From contig NC_057718.1 in assembly GCF_004010195.1 (NCBI RefSeq), forward strand, positions 118,143 through 160,493: a stretch of 42,351 bases of DNA. Reading direction: 5' to 3'. The position numbers and the translations under genes are program-made. Positions 1 to 34,085 of this stretch are shown here, piece after piece. The notes beneath the pieces were generated by a model. That model did not search any database. It had not been told where the DNA came from and saw nothing but the letters and a program-made list of their open reading frames with translations. Within the stretch, counting starts at the first letter, position 1, and every line of letters begins with the position of its first letter. The stretch comes from Chiloscyllium plagiosum (taxonomy: Eukaryota).

Positions 1-156
1 ACTCTCTCCCCACCCCCCCCCTCCTCTAGCTTATCTCTCCACGCTTCAGGCTCTCTGCCTTTATTCCTGATGAAGGGCTTTTGCCCGAAACGTCGATTTT
101 GCCTGTCCTCGGATGCTGCCTGAATTGCTGTGCTCTTCCAGCACCACTGATCCAGA
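1..156 (+). mobile_element. Penelope-like element 3' region (family A), tail-less arm, abutting or inserted into a family-B PLE
   Basis: Matches the family-A 3' sequence (cctgatgaagggcttttgcccgaaacgtcgatt...ggatgctgcctgaattgctgtgctcttccagcaccact) seen about ten more times in the window. It stops before the usual tail. Confidence 0.8.
63..98 (+). ncRNA. Minimal type I hammerhead ribozyme motif, family A (core intact)
   Basis: attc-CTGATGA(67-73)-a-gggc/tttt/gccc-GAA-ACGT-C(94)-gatt. Predicted cleavage after GUC94; stem I is weak. Confidence 0.75.
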
Positions 157-545
157 GAACACAGGGGGCCAACACCTTCAACCTATTTAGCTATCGCTGT
201 TGTTAACAGCTAACTCGAGAATGCAACTTCAAAAAAACGGTTTTGTGATTTACACATGAAAGAAGTGAAACTATCATTGTATTCTAACAGATGAAAGGGT
301 TAATAGACAATCAATTTTTCAATGTATAATTTCAGTTACATCACACTGTAAATTTTTGCTATAAATTCTGTTTTTTGCTATAACTTTTTGCTATAAATTA
401 CGATCGAGCCCTCCACTATCACCTGATGAAGGAGCGTTGCTCCGAAAGCTAGTGTGCTTCCAATTAAACCTGTTGGACTATAACCTGGTGTTGTGTGATT
501 TTTAACTTTGTACACCCCAGTCCAATACCGGCATCTCCAAATCAT
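153..545 (+). mobile_element. Penelope-like element 3' UTR fragment (family B)
   Basis: Highly similar to 4515-4885, the 3' end of the GIY-YIG-encoding element, including the tail ...ccggcatctccaaatcat. Confidence 0.85.
420..454 (+). ncRNA. Minimal type I hammerhead ribozyme motif, family B (intact)
   Basis: cac-CTGATGA(423-429)-a-ggagc/gtt/gctcc-GAA-AGCT-A(451)-gtg. Stem I cac/gtg, 5-bp stem II, palindromic AGCU helix III. Confidence 0.8.
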
Positions 546-1067
546 TCTCCACAGGCACTGTCTACAATTCCTCTCTGTTTCTTAACCAATGACATAGATT
601 CTGTTCCTTAACCTCTACTCCCAAAAATGAAGGCAATTGCAAATGTAACATTTACTTTGAAGCCAAAGCCACAATAAATCAAGAAATATACAGCCTCAAG
701 GCGATTACTTTGGGCAGTAAGATGTTTGCTGCTTTCAACACAAATAATTGAATTGCATAGTGTTAAAGATACAATATTGCCTCATTAAAGGAGTGAGAGT
801 AAAGTCCAAATAAATCCTCTCTGTATTGTGCAAATTGTGCCCAGAGGCAGTTTCGATATTGGTTGTTGTTGTGTTGGAGAAAACTTCAGTATAATAACAA
901 TCGCTTGATTGGCTTTTAGGCAAGTGTTTATATAAAGTATGATATATCGGTAACACGGCAGAATGACTGAGTTTGTGAAAAGGAAGCATCACTTTTCTCC
1001 TTTAACTCTAACATTGTTAGATAATTGGAGATGGTCGATAAGGTGAATAGCAGGCAATGTCAACATC

Positions 1068-1285
1068 CCATCCAGACTGGATTTTTATTATACTAAAACT
1101 GTTGTAGTGAGAGGGGTTAACTGGAGCTTGTGATTGTGATTGATGTCAGTCTCTATGGATCCTATTTGTGTCTCTGGAGGGTTTACTTCGTCTATTAATA
1201 AGGGGCTTCTTTCAATGAGGTATCCCATTTGATCAGTGGCAGCGTGTTCCTCAAAAAGGTTGGGATCAGCAGCTCCAGAGAAAGA
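1068..1285 (+). promoter_or_regulatory. Putative promoter/5' UTR of the GPCR gene, conserved with 31507-31720
   Basis: Shared blocks ccatccaga, gttaactg, gtcagtctctatggat, ttcaatg, ggtatcc and gggatcagcagctccagaga in the same order. AT-rich TATA-like tattaataa near 1193. Confidence 0.5.
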
Positions 1286-1289
1286 CAAA

Positions 1290-1373
1290 GATTGGAATCT
1301 CAGAACAACAGACTGGAATGTTCCAACAATGGATCAGAATCTGAGAACAATAGACTGGAATGTAACAACAATG
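1290..1373 (+). repeat. 21-bp tandem repeat x4 (42-bp higher order) overlapping the start of the GPCR exon
   Basis: In-frame translation DWNLRTT/DWNVPTM/DQNLRTI/DWNVTTM. Confidence 0.9.
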
Positions 1374-1503
1374 GACAGAAGGTTATCCTGGGGTCTTTCC
1401 TGGCTTTCTCAGGATTGGTCCTGGTTAGAGTTGCGGATAGAAGGTGTGCTGCTGATTATTCAGGCAGGTTACTATCCAATTCTTGCTATTGTTGGTGTTC
1501 CTG
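1329..1503 (+). CDS. Coding exon 1 of a GPR139/GPR142-like class A GPCR (N-terminus and start of TM1)
   Basis: MDQNLRTIDWNVTTMDRR...VLLIIQAGYYPILAIVGVP followed by a perfect phase-1 donor G|GTAAGT at 1503/1504. The YY-x-IL-x3-G-x-P TM1 pattern ending at an intron resembles GPR139-family exon 1 as I recall it. NVT glycosylation sequon present. The ATG at 1371 is an alternative start. Confidence 0.7.
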
Positions 1504-2027
1504 GTAAGTCTGTCTTTATCCACTTATTAAATCTATGAGCCATTGTGAACGCCATCGCTATAATTGTTATTTTTATTTGGTAAAGATGTAAACTATTATA
1601 TTCACTTTCAATCACAAACGCCATTCATATTTCATAAATTTTATTCCATTCATTTAAAAACATCTGAGGAGGAACAAATGTGTTCATAACCTGTTATGAA
1701 AGATCCCAGCCGATATAAACTCTTGCTGATTAGTGTCCTATATCTTTAAATACAACATACGTGAGACAATTTGTTTAATTTCAGTTACTTGTGTGTGGTT
1801 AATTTGAAAGAGAGAGAAATGGCTCTTAAGATTGCAAAAGATGTTCTGGGGTTTGAAGATGATTCCCAAATTTGCCAAGAAAGTTTAGAAAGACAAAAAA
1901 AGGCCATACTTTTAGAATTAGCAAAGACGTTAGAATTGAGTTTAACGAAAGACAAAAGTAAAACTGAAATTCTAAGTTAAAAATCACACAACACCAGGTT
2001 ATAGTCCAACAGGTTTAACTGGAAGCA

Positions 2028-2062
2028 CACTAGCTTTCGGAGCGACGCTCCTTCATCAGGTG
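2028..2062 (-). ncRNA. Minimal hammerhead motif, family B (intact)
   Basis: Reverse complement: cac-CTGATGA-a-ggagc/gtc/gctcc-GAA-AGCT-A-gtg. Confidence 0.8.
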
Positions 2063-2737
2063 ATTGTGGAGGACTCAATCCGAACACACATAGAATTTAT
2101 AGCAAAACTTAACAGTGTGATATAACTGAAATTATACATTGAAAAATTGATTGTCTGTTAAGCCTTTCATCTGTTAGAATACAGTGATAGTTTCACTTCT
2201 TTCATGTGTAAATCACAAAACCTTTTTATTAAAGTTGCATTCTCGGGTTAGCTGTTAACAATGGTGATAGCTAGATAACATGTTGAAGGTGTTAGCCCCC
2301 TGTGTTCTCTGTCTATGACCTGATGTTTAGATTGATTCTAATCTAAAAAGTGAGATAACAGAGTTTTACATAAATTCATGCAGTTTTTGAGCTCAGAGTT
2401 CTACATGAATGTATGCAGTTTTTGAGCAAAGTGCAATGTAACTCTGCAAGTACAAATTCACCCCACAAAATATATGTGTGCATGTGGGTTTTTGTCTGTG
2501 TGTGTGTCTGTCTGGGTTGGGGGTTGTGAGTGTGAGATAGTGTATGTGTGTGGGTGTAGTGAGTGCAGAGTGTCTTAAGTCTGTGAGGGGGTGCATGTGT
2601 GAGTGTGGGAGTGTGTGTCTATAAGGGTGTGTGTAGGTGTCTGTGTGTGCGTCCGTGTGTATAGGAGTGCCTGTGTGTGTGTGAGTGTGTGTGTGTGTAG
2701 GAGTATCTGTGTGTGTGTGTGTATAGTGCAATGGTGG

Positions 2738-3124
2738 TCACCTGTAATGTGACATGAACCCAAGGTCCCGGTTGAGGCCCTCCCTGTGGGTACCGAACTT
2801 AGCTGTCAGCCTCTGCTCAGCCACTTTTCTCTGCTGCCTGTCCCGAAGTCCATCTTGGAGGATGGTCACCCGAAGGTCCGAGGCTGAATGTGCTAGACCA
2901 CTGAAGTGTTCCCCAACTGGGAGGGAACCCTCCTGTCTGTTGATTGTTGTGCGGTACCCATTCATCCGTTGCCGTAGCCTTTGCTCGGTTTCCCCAATGT
3001 GCCATGCCTCCGGGCATTCTTGCCTGCAACGTATAAGATAGACAACATTGGCTGAGTCACATGAGTACCTGCCATGTACAAGGTGGGAGGTGCCCTCACG
3101 CGTAATGGTGGTATCTATGTCCAC
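2738..3124 (-). pseudogene. PLE GIY-YIG endonuclease domain (left arm)
   Basis: NVVYLIRCRQECPEAWHIGETEQRLRQRMNGYR...VGEHF...EQRL...GLNRD. Confidence 0.85.
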
Positions 3125-3487
3125 ACTCTGACACGTCTTGCAGCATCCACCATGACAGGGTTGTATGGAGTTGTCCTGAGAGCCGGGCAGTTTGCTACGA
3201 ACAATGATCTGTTTGAGGTTTGGGGTTGTTTAAAGGCAAGTAGTGGAGGTGTGAGGAAGTTCTTGGTGAGGTGCTCATCTTCATTGATAATGTGTTGCAG
3301 GTCACGAAGAACATGGCGTAATTTTTCAGCTCTCTGTCGGTTGCAGCACGTGTCTGTCTCCTGAGGAGGTCATTACGGTTCCTTGCTGTGGCACGGTGGA
3401 ACTGGTGGTCGATGAGTTGAGCATCGTACCTGTTCTTGTGAGGGCATCCCTGAGTGCTTCCAGGTACTCAACGTTACCCTCACAAGA

Positions 3488-4196
3488 ATGGGGTATGATG
3501 CCCACCTCATCGACAGCCAGTTCCAATGTGCCACAGCAAGGAACCGTAATGACCTCCTCAGGAGACAGACATGTGCTGCAACCGACAGGGTACCCTTCCT
3601 TGTTCAGTATTTCCCAGGAGCTGAAAAATTACGCCATGTTCTTCATGACCTGCAAAACATTATCAATGAGGATGAGCACCTCACCAAGACCTTCCTCACA
3701 CCTCCACTACTTGCCTTTAAAAACCGCCAAACCTCAAACAGATCGTTGTTCGTAGCAAGCTGCCTGGCTCTCAGGACAACTCCATACAACCCTGTCACGG
3801 TAGGCGCTGCAAGATGTGTCAGAGTGTGGACATAGATACCACCATTGCGCGTGGGGACACCTCCCACCTTGTACATGGCAGTACTTATGTGACTCAGCCA
3901 ACGTTATCTATCTTATCTGCCCGGAGGCATGGTACATTGGGGAAACCGAGCAAAGGCTACGACAACGGATGAATGGGCACCGCACAACAATCAACAGACA
4001 GGAGGGTTCCCTCCCAGTTGGGGAACACTTCAGTGGTCCAGGACATTCAGCCTCGGACCTTCGGGTGACCATCCTCCAAGGTGGACTTCGGGACAGGCAG
4101 CAGAGAAATGTGGCCGAGCAGAGGCTGATAGTTAAGTTCAGTAACCATAGGGAGGGCCTCAACCGGGACCTTGGGTTCATGTCACATTACAGGTGA
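3488..4196 (+). pseudogene. PLE ORF C-terminus with GIY-YIG endonuclease (right arm, frameshifted)
   Basis: GYDAHLIDSQF...RVPFLVQYFPG...PPLLAFK, then NVIYLICPEAWYIGETEQRLRQRMNGHR...GLNRD. Confidence 0.85.
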
Positions 4197-4759
4197 CCAC
4201 CATTATATTATACACACACACAGATACTCCTACACACAAACACACACCCCACACTCACACATGCACCCCCTCACAGATTAAGACACTCTACACTCACTAC
4301 TCACACAAATACACTTTCTCACACTCACAACCCCCAACCCAGACAGACAGACACACACACACACAGACAAAGACACACAACACACATATATTTTGTGGGG
4401 TGAATTTGTACTTGCAGGGTTACATTGTACTTTGCTCAAAAACTGCATGAATTTATATAAAACTCCGTTATTTCACTTTTTAGATTAGTATCAATCTAAA
4501 CATCATGGCTTAGACAGAGAACACAGGGGACCAACACCTTCAACATATTGTCTAGCTATCACCATTGTTAACAGCTAACCCGAGAATGCAACTTTTTTAA
4601 AAAAAGGTTTTGTGATTTACACATGAAAGAAGTGAAACTATCACTGTATTCTAACAAATGAAAGACTTAACAATCAATTTTTCAATATATAATTTCAGTT
4701 ACATCACACTGTAAATTTTTGCTATAAATTCTGTGTGTTAGGATTGAGCCCTCCACTAC

Positions 4760-4794
4760 CACCTGATGAAGGAGCGACGCTCCGAATGCTAGTG
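4760..4794 (+). ncRNA. Hammerhead motif, family B, core-mutated (GAAA>GAAT)
   Basis: cac-CTGATGA-a-ggagc/gac/gctcc-GAATGCT-A-gtg. Confidence 0.6.
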
Positions 4795-6139
4795 TGCTTC
4801 CAATTAAACCTGTTGGACTATAACCTGGTGTTGTGTGATTTTTAACTATGTACATCCCAGTCAAACACCGGCATCTCCAAATCATGAAATTCTAAGGGAG
4901 TTAGTCAAGCACTTAGGTATGTCAGAGTAACATACAAGTACAGTAGAGTGAGAGAACTTAATTTACAATTAAGGAAAATGGAGCTAGAAGATAAAGAAAA
5001 GGAGAGAGAAAGAGACAGAGAAGAAAGAGAGAGAAAGAGGAAAAAGAAATAGAGGGAGAGATAGGGACACTAACAGATATCGCCATAGTAACTGTGAGCA
5101 ACACACTCTCTATCAAAGATACCTTTTTCTTAAGAAACATCCATACCGCAAAAGACCAAAGACAACCCAGGGAGATTTCTAGCTAGAGGAAGACAGACAC
5201 AGGAGATGATAGCTGCTGTGTGGTTTTGAAATTAAGTTGATGTAATTTTAACACACGTGGTTATTGGAACAGTACATTGTTAGTGAGTTGGAGGAAAATA
5301 ACAAGCAGTTAAGAGAAAGGAGGGTTAGAGTTGTAAAAAGTTGTTTAATGTTCACTTTTAGAGGTAAAGAATAAATTGATATTTTTTCTTTAAATAGTGG
5401 AATTTGGGAGTACTCCGTCATTCATACTTTAACAGATTACGACGTGAGGTGAGCTTTTCTTAGTGTTTGGTTTAATTAGCAGAGGGGTTCACTGCTATGT
5501 TGCAACAATACAGAGTGACTCCATTCTGTCCTGAGATGATGTTTATCTCTCTATATTCCATATATCACCAAACTGATCTACTGCAATCTCCATAATATTC
5601 CCAGTCTTCACTTCTCCCACGTTACTATTTCTGAATATACCATCACCTACACTTTTCTAGTTGAAGTTCTCTTCTAGCCACTCTTCCAGTTATAAATATT
5701 TTATAACAATCATATTCTTGTCTCTACCAGGAACTACACCAGGTGCAAAATTTGAAGCCAGTTTGTTTCTAAAATGAGCTGGTCACAGCTTTATGTCACC
5801 TGTTTCAGCATAACCTGTAACCTCATAGTAGGGAGAGGACTGTGCTGTCAGTGGCCGTGAAATTACAGTTTCATTAAACTGCTTTGATAGTAGAACATTC
5901 CAAGTAGGAGTGAGTGCCATGTCCATCCTCTCTCAAGTGCAGTGCTCCCATGTATTAATTCGGTGACGGAGGCGATCTCTGCCCATTGCTGAGGAGGATA
6001 TATTAATTCTGTCTCCACAGAGGAAGGTACTGAAAATCTTCAAGAAATTCTATGGGACAGAGTAACTGGTGAAAAGAAGAAACTGTGGGAGATTAGGATT
6101 AAGAAAGAGAAATTACTCAAAAGACGAACTGAATTTAAG

Positions 6140-7662
6140 TTTGGTAAACTGCTGCCCCAGACGGGTTCCATCCCAGAGTATTCAGGGAGAGCACAGTAGA
6201 GCTAATGAAAGAGTTATAGTCATACAAGACAAAAACAGACCCTTCGGACTAACCAGTCTGCACCAACCATAATTCCCAATCTAACTGAGTTCCACCTGGC
6301 AACGCTTGGCTCATATCCATCCAGACATTCCCTATACATGTACTTATCCACATGTCTTTTAAACGTTGAAACTACAAGAATTAATTATTGAATATCCTTC
6401 AAAATTAGTTGGACTCTGGAAATTCCGGTTCCTGCAGACTGGAAAGTAGCTACACCCACGCACTCTCTTCTTCTGTCTCTCGCTCTCTCTCACACACACA
6501 CATACACACAAATCTGTGGGTCAAATTTGTATTTGGAGATACAGGTGTGGTGGATAGCGAAGATGGTTAGTTCAGAGTACAACGAGATCTTGATCAGATG
6601 GGTCAATGGGCTGACAAATTGCAGATAGGGTTTAATTTAGATAAATGTGAGGTGCTGCATTTTCAAAAAGCAAATCAGAGCAGGACTTATACACTTAATG
6701 GCAAGGTCCTTGGGAGTGTTGCTGAACAGAGACCTTGGAGTGCAGATTCCTTGAAAGTGAAGTTGCAGGTAGACAGGATAGTAAGGAAGGCATTTGGTAT
6801 GCTTTCCTTTATTTGTCAGAGCATTGAATATCAGATTTGGGATGGCATGTTGCAGCTGTACAGGACATTGGTTAGGCCACTTTTGGAATATTGTTTGCAA
6901 TTCTGGTCTCCTTCCTATCCGAAAGATGTTGGGAAACTTGAAAGGGTTCAGAAAAGATTTTCAAGGATGTTGCCAGGGCTGGAGGATTTGAGCTATACGG
7001 ACAGGTTGAATAGGCTAGGGCTGTTTTCCATGGAGCATCTGTGGTGACTTTATACAGGTTTATAAAATTATGAGCGGCATGGATAGGGTAAGTAGACAAG
7101 GCCATTTCCCTGGGCTGGGGGAGTCCAGAACTAGAGGGCACAGGTTTAGGATGAGAGGGGAAAAGTTTAAAAGGGACCGAAGGGACAACTTTTTCATGCA
7201 GAGAGTGGTACATGTATGGAATGAGCTGCCAGATGAATTTGTGGAGGCTGGTGCAATAACAACATTTGAAAGACATCTGGATGGGTATGTGAATAGGAAC
7301 AGTTTAGTGGGATATGGGGGTTTAGATTAGAGTGGTGTTGGAAAAGCACAGCAGGTCAGGCAGCATCCGAGAAGCAGGAAAATCGACGTTTCGGGCAAAA
7401 GCCCTTCATTCGGAATGGCTTTTGCCCGAAACGTCAATTTTCCTGCTTCTCGGATGCAGTCTGACCTGCTGTGCTTTTCCAGCACCACTCTAATCTAGAC
7501 TCTGGTTTCCAGCATCTGCAGTCCTCACTTTTGCCTTAGTGGGATATGGGCCATGTGCTGCCAAATGGAACTAGATTAGGTTTGGATATCTTGTCGGCAT
7601 GGTCGAGTTGGACTAAAGGGTCTGTTTCCATGCTATACATCCCTGTGAATCCATGACTCCAT
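6140..7662 (+). mobile_element. CR1-clade LINE (HER1-like) 3' part, RT C-terminus and 3' UTR; contains an antisense CR1 tail (~6210-6375) and a mini-PLE
   Basis: WADKLQIGFNLDKCEVLHF...LYRTLVRPLLEYCLQFWSP...LERVQKRFSRM...TRGHRFR, followed by a short tandem 3' terminus. Confidence 0.85.
7319..7535. mobile_element. Miniature fold-back PLE (family A) with degenerate hammerhead motifs
   Basis: Inverted arms of ~80 bp, ~35-nt tail on the right, perfect 15-bp TSD ttagtgggatatggg at 7304-7318 and 7536-7550. Confidence 0.9.
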
Positions 7663-8744: not shown

Positions 8745-9295
8745 AGAATAGAATTCCTACAGTGTGGAAGCAGGCCCTTCTGCCCAACAAGTCTTCACCG
8801 ACCCTCTGAACAGCAACCCACCCAGACACATGCCCCCCCCCCTACCCTATTAGCACCTAACCTACACATCCCTGAATACTATGGGCAATTTATCATGGGC
8901 GAGCCACCTAAACTGCATATCTTTGGATTGTGGGAGGAAAGAGCTGGAAATGTGTTGCTGGAAAAGCGCAGCAGGTCAGGCAGCATCCAAGGAGCAGGAG
9001 AATCGACGTTTCGGGCATGAAGAAGGGCTCATGCCCGAAATGTCGATTCTTCTGCTCCTTGGATGCTGCCTGACCTGCTGCGCTTTTCCAGCAACACATT
9101 TTCAGCTCTGATCTCCAGCATCTGCAGTCCTCACTTTCTCCTATTGTGGAAGGAAACCAGAGCACCCAGAGGGAACCCACGCAGAGATGGTGAGAATATG
9201 CAAGCTCCACACAGACGATCGCCTGAGGTTGGAATTGAACCCGGGTCACTGGCACTGTGAGGCAGCAGTGCTAACCACTGAGCGACCGTGCCACC
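8745..9295 (-). mobile_element. HE1-type tRNA-derived V-SINE, interrupted by a mini-PLE
   Basis: Reverse complement matches the copies at 11949 and 19162 (ggcacggt...cagtggttagcactgctgcctcacag head, CR1-like tail). Confidence 0.85.
8941..9142. mobile_element. Miniature fold-back PLE (family A)
   Basis: Near-perfect inverted arms, 34-nt tail, 14-bp TSD attgtgg(g/a)aggaaa at 8927-8940 and 9143-9156. Confidence 0.9.
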
Positions 9296-9599
9296 TACTT
9301 ATTGGAAAAAGTGGCCTCTGAGTTATCCTGTCCAGCAGATTTGAGGGGCCGAATGGAATGGAGGGACATGGGACTGAGGAGCAGGAGTGGATCACTAGAT
9401 ACTTTCAGCCATTTCCACCAGACAGTAAGATTCTGGCTGCTCTGGTCATGGTCTCAGTCCATGTCTATATCCCATGACTCACTTGTATTTCAAATATTTT
9501 GCTTTGAAAGAACTGTAAACAGAGAGGCACCACAAACTTCTGGGCAAGAGAGTTTCCACACTGAAAGGCCGTTTTAGAATTTCTCCTCATCCATCTTAT

Positions 9600-9840
9600 A
9601 GAGTTAGAGAGCTATACAGCCTGGAAACAAACCGGTTAATCCAACTTTCCCATGCTGACCAGCTGTCCTAAACCGATCTAGCCCCATTTGCCAGTATTTG
9701 GCCCATATCCCTCTAAACCATTCCTATTCATGTACCCATTCCAGATGCCTATTAAATGTGTAATTGTACCAGCTTCCACCACTTCCTCTGACAGCACGGT
9801 CTGAGCGTGCATCACCCTCTGCCTGAAAAGGTTGCCACTT
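9600..9840 (-). mobile_element. CR1 LINE 3' tail fragment
   Basis: Reverse complement similar to 7190-7660 (EEVVEAGTIT...GLEGYGPNTGKW). Confidence 0.75.
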
Positions 9841-9849
9841 TGATATCGG

Positions 9850-10028
9850 ACATGCACACACACATAAACACATACAGACGCACACACATAGATAGACATG
9901 CGCACACACACACAAACAGAAACACAAACAGATGCAGACACATACATTCATGCATACACGTGCACAGACACATACACTTAGACACACTCACCCAAACTCA
10001 CACACGTACAGACAGACACACACACATT
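9850..10028. repeat. Degenerate (CA)n-rich simple repeat
   Basis: cacacacataaacacatacagacgcacacac... Confidence 0.85.
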
Positions 10029-30270: not shown

Positions 30271-30852
30271 GTTAAAAATCACACAACACCAGGTTATATT
30301 CCAACAGATTTACTTGGAAGCACTTGCTTTCAGAGCACTGCTCCCTCATCAGGTGGTTGTGGAGTATAACTTATACAAAATTACATTTTACTTGCACAAA
30401 AACTGCATGAATCCATATAAGATTCTGTAAATCAGTTTTTTAAGATTAGAATCAGACTGACCATTGTGGCACAGACAGCTTTACAGGAAGTTAACACCTT
30501 CAATACCTTATCTGGGCCGACACGACATCAATTGTTAGCGTGCACTTGAGAATGTAACCTTTAAAAAAAAGATTTACGATTTACATACGAAAGAATTGAA
30601 ACCAACATGGTCATGCTAAAAGATGAGAGACTTAACAAACAATCCGGGTCATTTTCAATATATAATTTCAGTCACTTCACTTTGTAAACTTTTGTTATAA
30701 ATTCTGTGTCTTACAATCTTATTCTTCACAATCACCTGATGAAGGAGCAGCACTCCAAAAGCTAGTGCTTCCAAATAAACCTGTTAGACTATAACCCGGT
30801 GTTGTGATTTTTAACTTTGTCCACTTCAGTTCAACACTGGCATCTCCAAATC
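30271..30852. mobile_element. PLE family B variant with inverted arms and two degenerate hammerhead motifs (minus ~30321-30355, plus ~30733-30767)
   Basis: Ends match 1977ff and 4740-4884. Confidence 0.85.
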
Positions 30853-33871: not shown

Positions 33872-34085
33872 GGAGAAAGTGAGGACCGCAGATGCTGGAG
33901 ATCAGAGCTGAAAATGTGTTGCTGGAAAAGCACAGCAGGTCAGGCAGCATCCAAGGAGCAGGAGAATCGACGTTTCGGGCATGAGCACTTCTTCCTGAAG
34001 AAGGGCTCATGGCAGAAATGTCGATTCTCCTGCTCCTTGGATGCTGCCTGACCTGCTGCGCTTTTCCAGCAACACATTTTCAGCG
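33872..34085. mobile_element. Miniature fold-back PLE (family A), tail on the left
   Basis: Inverted arms; 13-bp TSD ccagttt(g/a)atcta at 33859-33871 and 34086-34098. Confidence 0.9.

Follow-up and report, generated by a model that had tools for sequence, protein, structure and literature searches.

The stretch of DNA considered here, a window of 42,351 nucleotides from Chiloscyllium plagiosum (contig NC_057718.1 of assembly GCF_004010195.1, forward-strand positions 118,143 to 160,493), begins with two adjoining fragments that we assign to the 3' ends of two different Penelope-like elements (PLEs), termed A-type and B-type. Each fragment carries a hammerhead ribozyme motif of the minimal kind (Table 1). 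Both motifs lie on the forward strand and their CUGAUGA boxes are separated by 356 nt, in line with the spacing of about 355 nt given in an earlier reading made from the letters of the DNA (referred to here as the sequence-only reading). Each motif has a palindrome of four nucleotides in front of the cleavage nucleotide, ACGU in A and AGCU in B, and it had been proposed that these palindromes are a family-specific code for dimerization.

Table 1. Features of the window (positions count from its first letter).
Feature	Position	Strand	Basis or remark
3'-terminal fragment of A-type PLE	1..152	+	BLAST against other copies
5'-truncated 3'-terminal 393 nt of B-type PLE	153..545	+	end of the pseudo-LTR region, including the hammerhead
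A-B junction, between 152 and 153	141..170	+	30-mer shared with other loci
Motif A, helix I 5' strand UUAUUC	61..66	+	pairs weakly with 95-100
Motif A, minimal hammerhead	67..94	+	core matched base by base to the hammerhead scheme
Motif A, CUGAUGA box	67-73	+	read from the sequence
Motif A, bulged unpaired A	74	+	between A9 and G10.1
Motif A, helix II: GGGC 75-78, UUUU loop, GCCC 83-86	75-86	+	4 bp
Motif A, GAA 87-89 and palindrome ACGU 90-93	87-93	+	read from the sequence
Motif A, cleavage nucleotide C	94	+	predicted cut between 94 and 95
Motif A, helix I 3' strand GAUUUU	95..100	+	partner of 61-66
Motif B, helix I 5' strand CAC	420..422	+	pairs with GUG 452-454
Motif B, minimal hammerhead	423..451	+	core matched base by base to the hammerhead scheme
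Motif B, CUGAUGA box 423-429 and bulged A 430	423-430	+	read from the sequence
Motif B, helix II: GGAGC 431-435, GUU loop, GCUCC 439-443	431-443	+	5 bp
Motif B, GAA 444-446 and palindrome AGCU 447-450	444-450	+	read from the sequence
Motif B, cleavage nucleotide A	451	+	predicted cut between 451 and 452
Motif B, helix I 3' strand GUG	452..454	+	partner of CAC 420-422
AAUUAAA 462-468 and polyA sites 480 and 483	462..483	+	B transcripts
Head-to-head pair of B-type PLE 3' parts	1974..4885		arms ~1974-3430(-) and 3492-4885(+), ~1.45 kb each
B motif, intact	2059-2031	-	motif scan
B-type PLE ORF remnants	2744-3265(-), 3422-4190(+)		tblastn to PLE proteins
B motif with A15.1 changed to U	4763-4791	+	motif scan; predicted to be inactive
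Head-to-head pairs of hammerhead-bearing copies	7331-7489, 8944-9097, 33916-34075		
UCAU/UUAU helix-II loop variants of the A lineage	9017(+), 29827(-), 22726(-)		palindromes ATGT, ACAT or ACGT
B-type motif with G12 changed to A	30736-30764		core change; predicted to be inactive

Both motifs contain the catalytic box C3-U4-G5-A6-N7-G8-A9 and G12-A13-A14, together with A15.1, U16.1 and a position 17 other than G (A90...U93-C94 in A, A447...U450-A451 in B). Helix II is clear and is closed in both cases by the pair G10.1-C11.1. Direct reading thus confirms two hammerhead cores with loopless palindromes. Four nucleotides form no hairpin, as the sequence-only reading had also pointed out, and hence helix III with its A15.1-U16.1 pair cannot be closed within one motif but only between copies. 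Helix I is restricted to 2-3 bp and adds no stability in the energy model; in A its pairing runs G-C, A-U, a U.U mismatch and then U-A. The AUG within CUGAUGA reaches a stop after 17 codons in A and after 8 codons in B. A chance origin of such motifs was considered and is ruled out by shuffling, together with the genome counts given below, whose reversed controls found no match: CTGATGA-N6-30-GAAA occurs 7 times in the window compared to 1.42 expected, and none of 100 shuffles reaches 7.

A palindromic helix III of the dimer type, as stated before us for this DNA, matches the published minimal hammerhead ribozymes (min-HHR) of PLEs (PMC4209133, PMC6765202). These lack helix III and loop 3, are built around an active dimer and are located in the pseudo-long terminal repeats (pseudo-LTRs) of the elements (Cervera & de la Pena 2014, PMC4209133). 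Their traits are an extra nucleotide after A9, a G10.1-C11.1 pair, palindromic positions 15.2-16.2 and a short helix I, and the copies are mostly solitary, with pairs 100-700 bp apart on opposite strands (PMC4209133). The motifs described here agree in each of these features: a type-I core without a helix III loop, the extra nucleotide, the closing pair, the palindrome, the short helix I, repeats flanking a reverse transcriptase (RT) open reading frame (ORF), and thousands of mostly solitary copies with opposite-strand pairs nearby. There is no structural difference to this class; helix II is short, with 4-5 bp here versus 7-8 bp in the Schistosoma min-HHR, and the copy numbers exceed those given for coelacanth (~4,000) and Xenopus (~9,000) (PMC4209133). 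Single min-HHR motifs showed no activity, whereas weak activity was found for dimeric or trimeric constructs (PMC4209133), an account that reviews repeat, citing Lunse, Weinberg & Breaker for dimeric cleavage (PMC6765202, PMC6466107). That dimer dependence permits cleavage in multimers and spares monomers was proposed in the same work (PMC4209133); the suggestion made for the present DNA, that dispersed monomers are thereby harmless to host RNAs, was therefore already in print. A similar principle has been described for the double hammerhead of newt satellite 2 and avocado sunblotch viroid (Forster et al. 1988, via PMC4209133 and PMC6466107). There, two weak helix III segments likewise join to give a single helix between the molecules, two copies contribute to every active site, and cleavage is thought to be limited to multimeric transcripts. 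In contrast, those motifs keep a stem of 1-2 bp with a palindromic loop of 2-4 nt and loop-loop tertiary contacts, while helix III here consists of four nucleotides in all.

The assignment to PLEs rests on the boundaries of the copies and on coding sequence. Longer A copies, found by BLAST, extend upstream of the fragment at the start of the window. The sequence directly upstream reads N (positions 9400-10000 of the neighbouring stretch L042; the window itself contains 549 N), and thus the A copy is artificially cut by an assembly gap. Its 3' side stops at ...gatccagaa and lacks the further 35-nt tail that is present in 5 of 8 A loci (L001-L008); a fraction of the A and B copies carries such an optional tail of 35-38 nt. 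The B fragment is matched by copies at 4515-4885(+) and 2311-1974(-), and 3' ends of B copies cluster at 505-512 and 543-545. Truncated 5' ends, partial tandems and head-to-head arrangements are all seen among the A and B repeats. The 5' ends pile up just upstream of CUGAUGA (window 61-73 and 410-427) in 31 of 62 A-type and 23 of 59 B-type alignments, counts that are biased since the loci were partly picked for an intact motif. Mini-copies of ~90-130 nt possibly run from the 5' end of the transcript to an internal start of reverse transcription.

These boundaries bear on the idea that the motifs belong to a non-LTR retrozyme, that is, to short tandem repeats expressed as circular RNAs. Animal type-I hammerheads are often found in such repeats (PMC7229834), and a preprint from 2026 ties retrozymes to PLEs (10.64898/2026.07.22.740005). 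However, the copies share 3' ends and differ at the 5' end, and the cleavage site shows no accumulation of 5' ends, with 1 of 62 A-type alignments beginning at or after position 95. Furthermore, positions 1-6000 of the window hold no tandem array with a hammerhead unit (the longest period is 42 nt), and the motifs have no helix III stem-loop such as the canonical hammerheads of retrozymes possess, which come in units of 150-450 nt. We therefore give a retrozyme hardly any credence.

A genomic locus outside the window (L045) contains two identical B motifs on one strand at a distance of 2,517 nt; between them lie pieces of an RT ORF with the motifs FLVTMDVSALY, GTAMG and YVDD. A B ORF piece of 410 amino acids has 107 longer homologues (E<=1e-5) that carry RVT_1 and DUF8422, with GIY-YIG in addition in 30 of them. 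The protein atlas leads to RVT_1/DUF8422 clusters as well; a PDB sequence search gave nothing useful. Combination of an RT with a GIY-YIG domain is the architecture of PLEs. At another locus (L044) an A motif is found ~240 nt downstream of the C-terminus of a PLE ORF. This ORF is best matched by protein P0027 (44%), whereas the B-type remnants are best matched by P0001 (54-60%). The different best matches indicate that A and B stem from two PLE protein lineages.

How far the palindromes follow these lineages can be judged from counts over the 3.56-Gb genome, taken with core patterns in which helix II is fixed and any A-NN-U is allowed; palindromes were tallied among the first 100 matches listed per pattern. 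The exact 28-mer of motif A occurs 18,175 times. Core matches number 30,453 for A and 19,019 for B, and the reversed-pattern control of either gave 0. Among the matches listed for A (100 of 30,453), 64 read ACGT, 17 ACAT, 12 ATGT and 3 ATAT, the remainder being 2 ACCT, 1 AGGT and 1 ACTT, with 0 AGCT; ACAT, ATGT and ATAT (32 of the 100 listed) are CpG-decay forms of ACGT. For B (100 listed of 19,019) the result is 99 AGCT and 1 AGTT. A variant with a UCAU loop (224 copies) has ACGT in 55 of the 100 matches listed, and the other 45 are CpG-decay forms except for 1 AAGT and 2 ACTT. Family C, whose helix II is changed in a compensated manner (GAGC-UUAU-GCUC), counts 1,178 copies genome-wide, with ACGT in 22 of 100 listed and mostly decay forms otherwise. 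The families C and D of the sequence-only reading are most likely the UCAU/UUAU variants of the A lineage in the window; as these read ATGT, ACAT or ACGT, the ACGU that it had inferred for both is reasonable. Motifs that are neither A nor B amount to 9,833 matches compared to ~1,068 expected from the control. Among the 100 listed, 97 have ACGT or AGCT, 3 AGGT and 0 ACCT; they include GAGUC-AUCUA-GACUC with ACGU and U17 as well as GAAGC/GCUUC with AGCU and A17.

Some of these data are what one would expect of a palindrome that is selected as a family-specific dimerization code, such that cleavage is confined to tandem transcripts from a single family and the families are insulated from each other. 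ACGU is unable to pair with AGCU, and among the matches listed the A and B types of helix II each keep to their own palindrome, as AGCT is absent from A and nearly constant in B. Also, ACGU is kept in several A-lineage families despite its mutable CpG. Compensatory changes of helix II between copy families, a trait of the min-HHR, are present in both the ACGU and the AGCU group. That a CpG-bearing palindrome persisted while helix II was compensated suggests that helix III was constrained in the source copies, which fits the known dimer model. However, only two of the four possible A-NN-U palindromes are in use in this genome. ACGU is common to at least three helix-II families (GGGC/GCCC, GAGC/GCUC and GAGUC/GACUC) and AGCU to at least two (GGAGC/GCUCC and GAAGC/GCUUC), so that two words cover at least five families. 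Within a family, common descent suffices to keep the palindrome constant. At most, the palindrome separates two deep PLE lineages that each comprise several families, and a family code is not supported. Taken together with the energies and the head-to-head pairs described next, we consider such a code quite unlikely.

Pairing energies were calculated for a forced double-hammerhead fold, in which only the known helices are drawn, with a nearest-neighbour base-pair model. This fold reaches -13.3 kcal/mol for A-A and -17.7 for B-B, while A-B reaches -0.3. Of the earlier claim that motifs A and B do not activate each other, the lack of complementarity stands; by this model the A and B copies at the locus would be silent as monomers and would not act on each other. 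Helix III contributes only -3.1 (A) and -4.5 kcal/mol (B) over helix II alone, and the bare palindromes -1.7 (ACGU) and -2.5 kcal/mol (AGCU). Simple arithmetic puts the affinity of helix III in the millimolar range, which could discriminate in principle but would be too weak to find a partner in trans. In addition, an intercopy helix III means that the other copy supplies the strand with position 17 and the 3' part of helix I, so that helix I has to be swapped between the partners too and the palindrome is not the sole discriminator; the strands of helix I differ between A and B. In the predicted fold of the A monomer, UGAUG of the catalytic box (68-72) pairs with CGUCG (91-95), across palindrome and cleavage site. 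This pairing would extend helix II and hide the core, and may represent a built-in off state.

Partner choice in the genome is seen most directly in head-to-head pairs. These were searched with helix II and GAAA as anchors at a gap of 8-38 nt, the junction lying just upstream of CUGAUGA; many of these junctions form a perfect palindrome, located a few nucleotides 5' of the box. We found 1,686 A/A and 1,517 B/B loci and a single A/B locus, while random pairing of arms predicts ~3,200 mixed loci (2 x sqrt(1686 x 1517)). Such an exclusive choice of partners is in favor of a code. Yet this exclusivity is not tied to the palindrome: ACGU is common to A and C, and still there is 1 A/C locus versus ~470 expected, next to 33 C/C loci, although C is older than A and time may account for this scarcity. 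Moreover, the A and B proteins differ, which explains exclusivity without any RNA code. The simplest account is that both arms derive from RNAs bound by the protein of their own lineage, or from one locus or template. Snap-back copying of a single template was considered and is insufficient as a full explanation, because a hand count in the 50 B/B loci listed (of 1,517) shows that the two arms agree in the middle base of loop II in 40 pairs and differ in 10. Random pairing of arms predicts about 26 of 50 to be the same, given arm frequencies of T 69, G 18 and A 13 per 100 in the B/B loci listed, and mutation alone should, as a rough argument, yield few differences in copies with 34 intact anchor bases. 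Thus, at least some of the pairs seem to have had two templates. Two of the 10 differing pairs listed are GTC versus GAC and could be hairpin flips. These loops are reverse complements inside the symmetric GGAGC/GCUCC stem, and some of the loop-II differences that look like subfamilies may be hairpin inversions, not substitutions.

The closest parallel to a palindrome code is the dimer initiation site of retroviruses, a short self-complementary sequence, variants of which could restrict heterodimers between lineages. Unlike the PLE palindrome, this site is a 6-nt loop-loop kissing contact with a measured affinity and a role in packaging. In the manner of such a site, the palindrome together with the swapped helix I might pair same-lineage PLE RNAs on a dimeric RT/endonuclease and also choose both templates when a head-to-head insertion is made by twin priming. 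The near-total lack of mixed pairs would thereby be explained, and we regard this possibility as a long shot. No family-specific palindrome code was found in the literature on PLE hammerhead dimers within our coverage, which did not extend to Lunse et al. and the supplements of PMC4209133.

The junction of A and B at the locus is itself informative. The 30-mer across it recurs at 6 other places of the genome with at most 2 mismatches, which rules out two independent insertions that happened to become neighbours. Five loci share the junction (L052-L056) but begin at different points of A (q1, q63, q109, q126), and one of them (L054) holds both cores intact, 325 nt apart. A shared junction with varied 5' ends means that the composite has a single origin and was subsequently copied as one piece through the 3' end of B. 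Most likely, it was formed when the reverse transcriptase, after copying B, switched to an A RNA at its 3' end without the tail. The at least seven loci form a small chimeric subfamily with two hammerheads of incompatible palindromes. It follows that an RNA with both hammerheads in the same sense has repeatedly served as template, which is compatible with a lack of cross-activation and equally with a generally low hammerhead activity.

Transcripts of the B part are common. A polyA single-cell RNA run with the same species label (X21) gave 3,382 reads at >=90% likeness, and the B part is read almost entirely in one direction. Reads run into polyA behind position 480 (325 reads) and 483 (391 reads), 12-15 nt past AAUUAAA and ~30 nt past the hammerhead cleavage site, and depth falls after 483; many reads carry an A at 464, which turns the signal into AAUAAA. 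Uncleaved, sense and polyadenylated B transcripts are thus common. Since genomic B copies extend to 507 or 545, this polyadenylated RNA is not the form that is copied.

In summary of these arguments, we conclude with a probability of about 0.8 that positions 1 to 545 are a composite of two PLE 3' ends, each with the min-HHR of its own lineage, and that the palindromes are inherited lineage marks and do not encode the choice of partner. Helix III is reduced to A15.1-N15.2-N16.2-U16.1 with self-complementary positions 15.2/16.2, and an active site would arise only when two same-sense copies pair via the palindrome, such that one copy provides the catalytic strand and its partner both the cleavage site and a strand of helix I. 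The combinations ACGU/C17 in A and AGCU/A17 in B would be marks inherited in two old PLE lineages with their own reverse transcriptases. The 4-bp word would not choose the partner; rather, the partner would be fixed by the tandem order of pseudo-LTR, ORF and pseudo-LTR within a single transcript, probably with help from the element's own, possibly dimeric, protein. The anatomy, the copy numbers, the association with PLE ORFs and the missing complementarity of A and B are shown directly, and a need for dimers and an incompatibility of A with B are sound inferences.

A role for the protein leads to a different possibility, namely that a single motif is cut once its own PLE protein binds close by and folds it, the palindrome being a relic or having another use. 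RNA of the Poseidon element PAc from Anolis carolinensis, which has one hammerhead motif, is cleaved only when protein is added, and endonuclease-dead protein still supports cleavage (PMC11167929). PAc resembles the elements described here in several aspects: its hammerhead lies ~80-120 nt from the 3' end of the insertion, the optional tail of 30-40 bp known from PLEs is present, organization is tandem or partially tandem, and the predicted cleavage site is not marked by ends of RNA-seq reads; unlike in A and B, where the AUG soon hits a stop, the ORF of PAc starts inside the hammerhead (PMC11167929). However, that assay used 500 nM RNA, which leaves room for trans dimers on a protein that is predicted to be a dimer and that nicks and extends both DNA strands (PMC11167929). 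A15.1-U16.1 cannot be closed inside one loopless motif, the palindromic 15.2-16.2 is kept in the large majority of the listed motifs that are neither A nor B (97 of 100), and the inactivity of single motifs in the earlier work points in the same direction (PMC4209133). Cleavage of a protein-folded monomer therefore appears unlikely.

Several observations weigh against our preferred interpretation of a lineage-marked composite whose hammerheads act as dimers. Rfam reports no hammerhead family at the gathering score or at E<=10, probably because the helix III hairpin is absent. Pfam scores RVT_1 in the ORF of L045 at 17.2 bits, below the cut-off of 29.6, and finds no GIY-YIG in the one broken local ORF copy analysed, and the association of A with an ORF is seen at one locus only (L044). 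The near-absence of mixed A/B pairs is predicted equally by family-specific pairing of the RNAs. Minimum free energy folds are non-hammerhead throughout, both for monomers (-11.4 kcal/mol for A, -11.0 for B) and for cofolded dimers (-24.6 and -30.3), so the active fold is not favoured; with the short helix I, activity of any kind is only predicted. An unfavoured active fold agrees with the low in vitro activity of min-HHR (PMC4209133) and with the protein dependence of the Anolis hammerhead (PMC11167929). Read starts and ends in run X21 do not pile up anywhere, and depth is continuous across 94/95 and 451/452; as a polyA single-cell library is blind to the ~30-nt cleaved 3' piece and to 5'-OH ends, the missing pile-up is no sign of absent cleavage.

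With A and B, a class of ribozymes known since 2014 gains two very abundant families; the hammerheads of PLEs are without an agreed function. If the palindrome did choose partners, a role in pairing template RNAs would link dimer-only ribozymes, a predicted dimeric protein that nicks two strands and head-to-head insertions. The same-family rule of head-to-head pairs and the copied A-B composite are cheap natural test material for partner choice.

Within the 42 kb neither motif A (67) nor motif B (423) has an intact same-sense partner of its own family, and a 50-kb neighbourhood sample contained intact motifs of A- and B-type only, few in number. The B-type head-to-head pair close to the start of the window has arms that are inverted repeats with 92-95% complementarity, each with ORF remnants and a B hammerhead; the remnants are continuous with the two B copies that match the fragment at 153..545. 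Two of the head-to-head A copies (7331-7489 and 8977-9071) form long near-perfect hairpins. These draw the only Rfam matches, all sub-threshold and of miRNA type: MIR5998 (56.5 bits, gathering score 180), mir-1791 and mir-722. Such hairpins could be sources of small RNAs.

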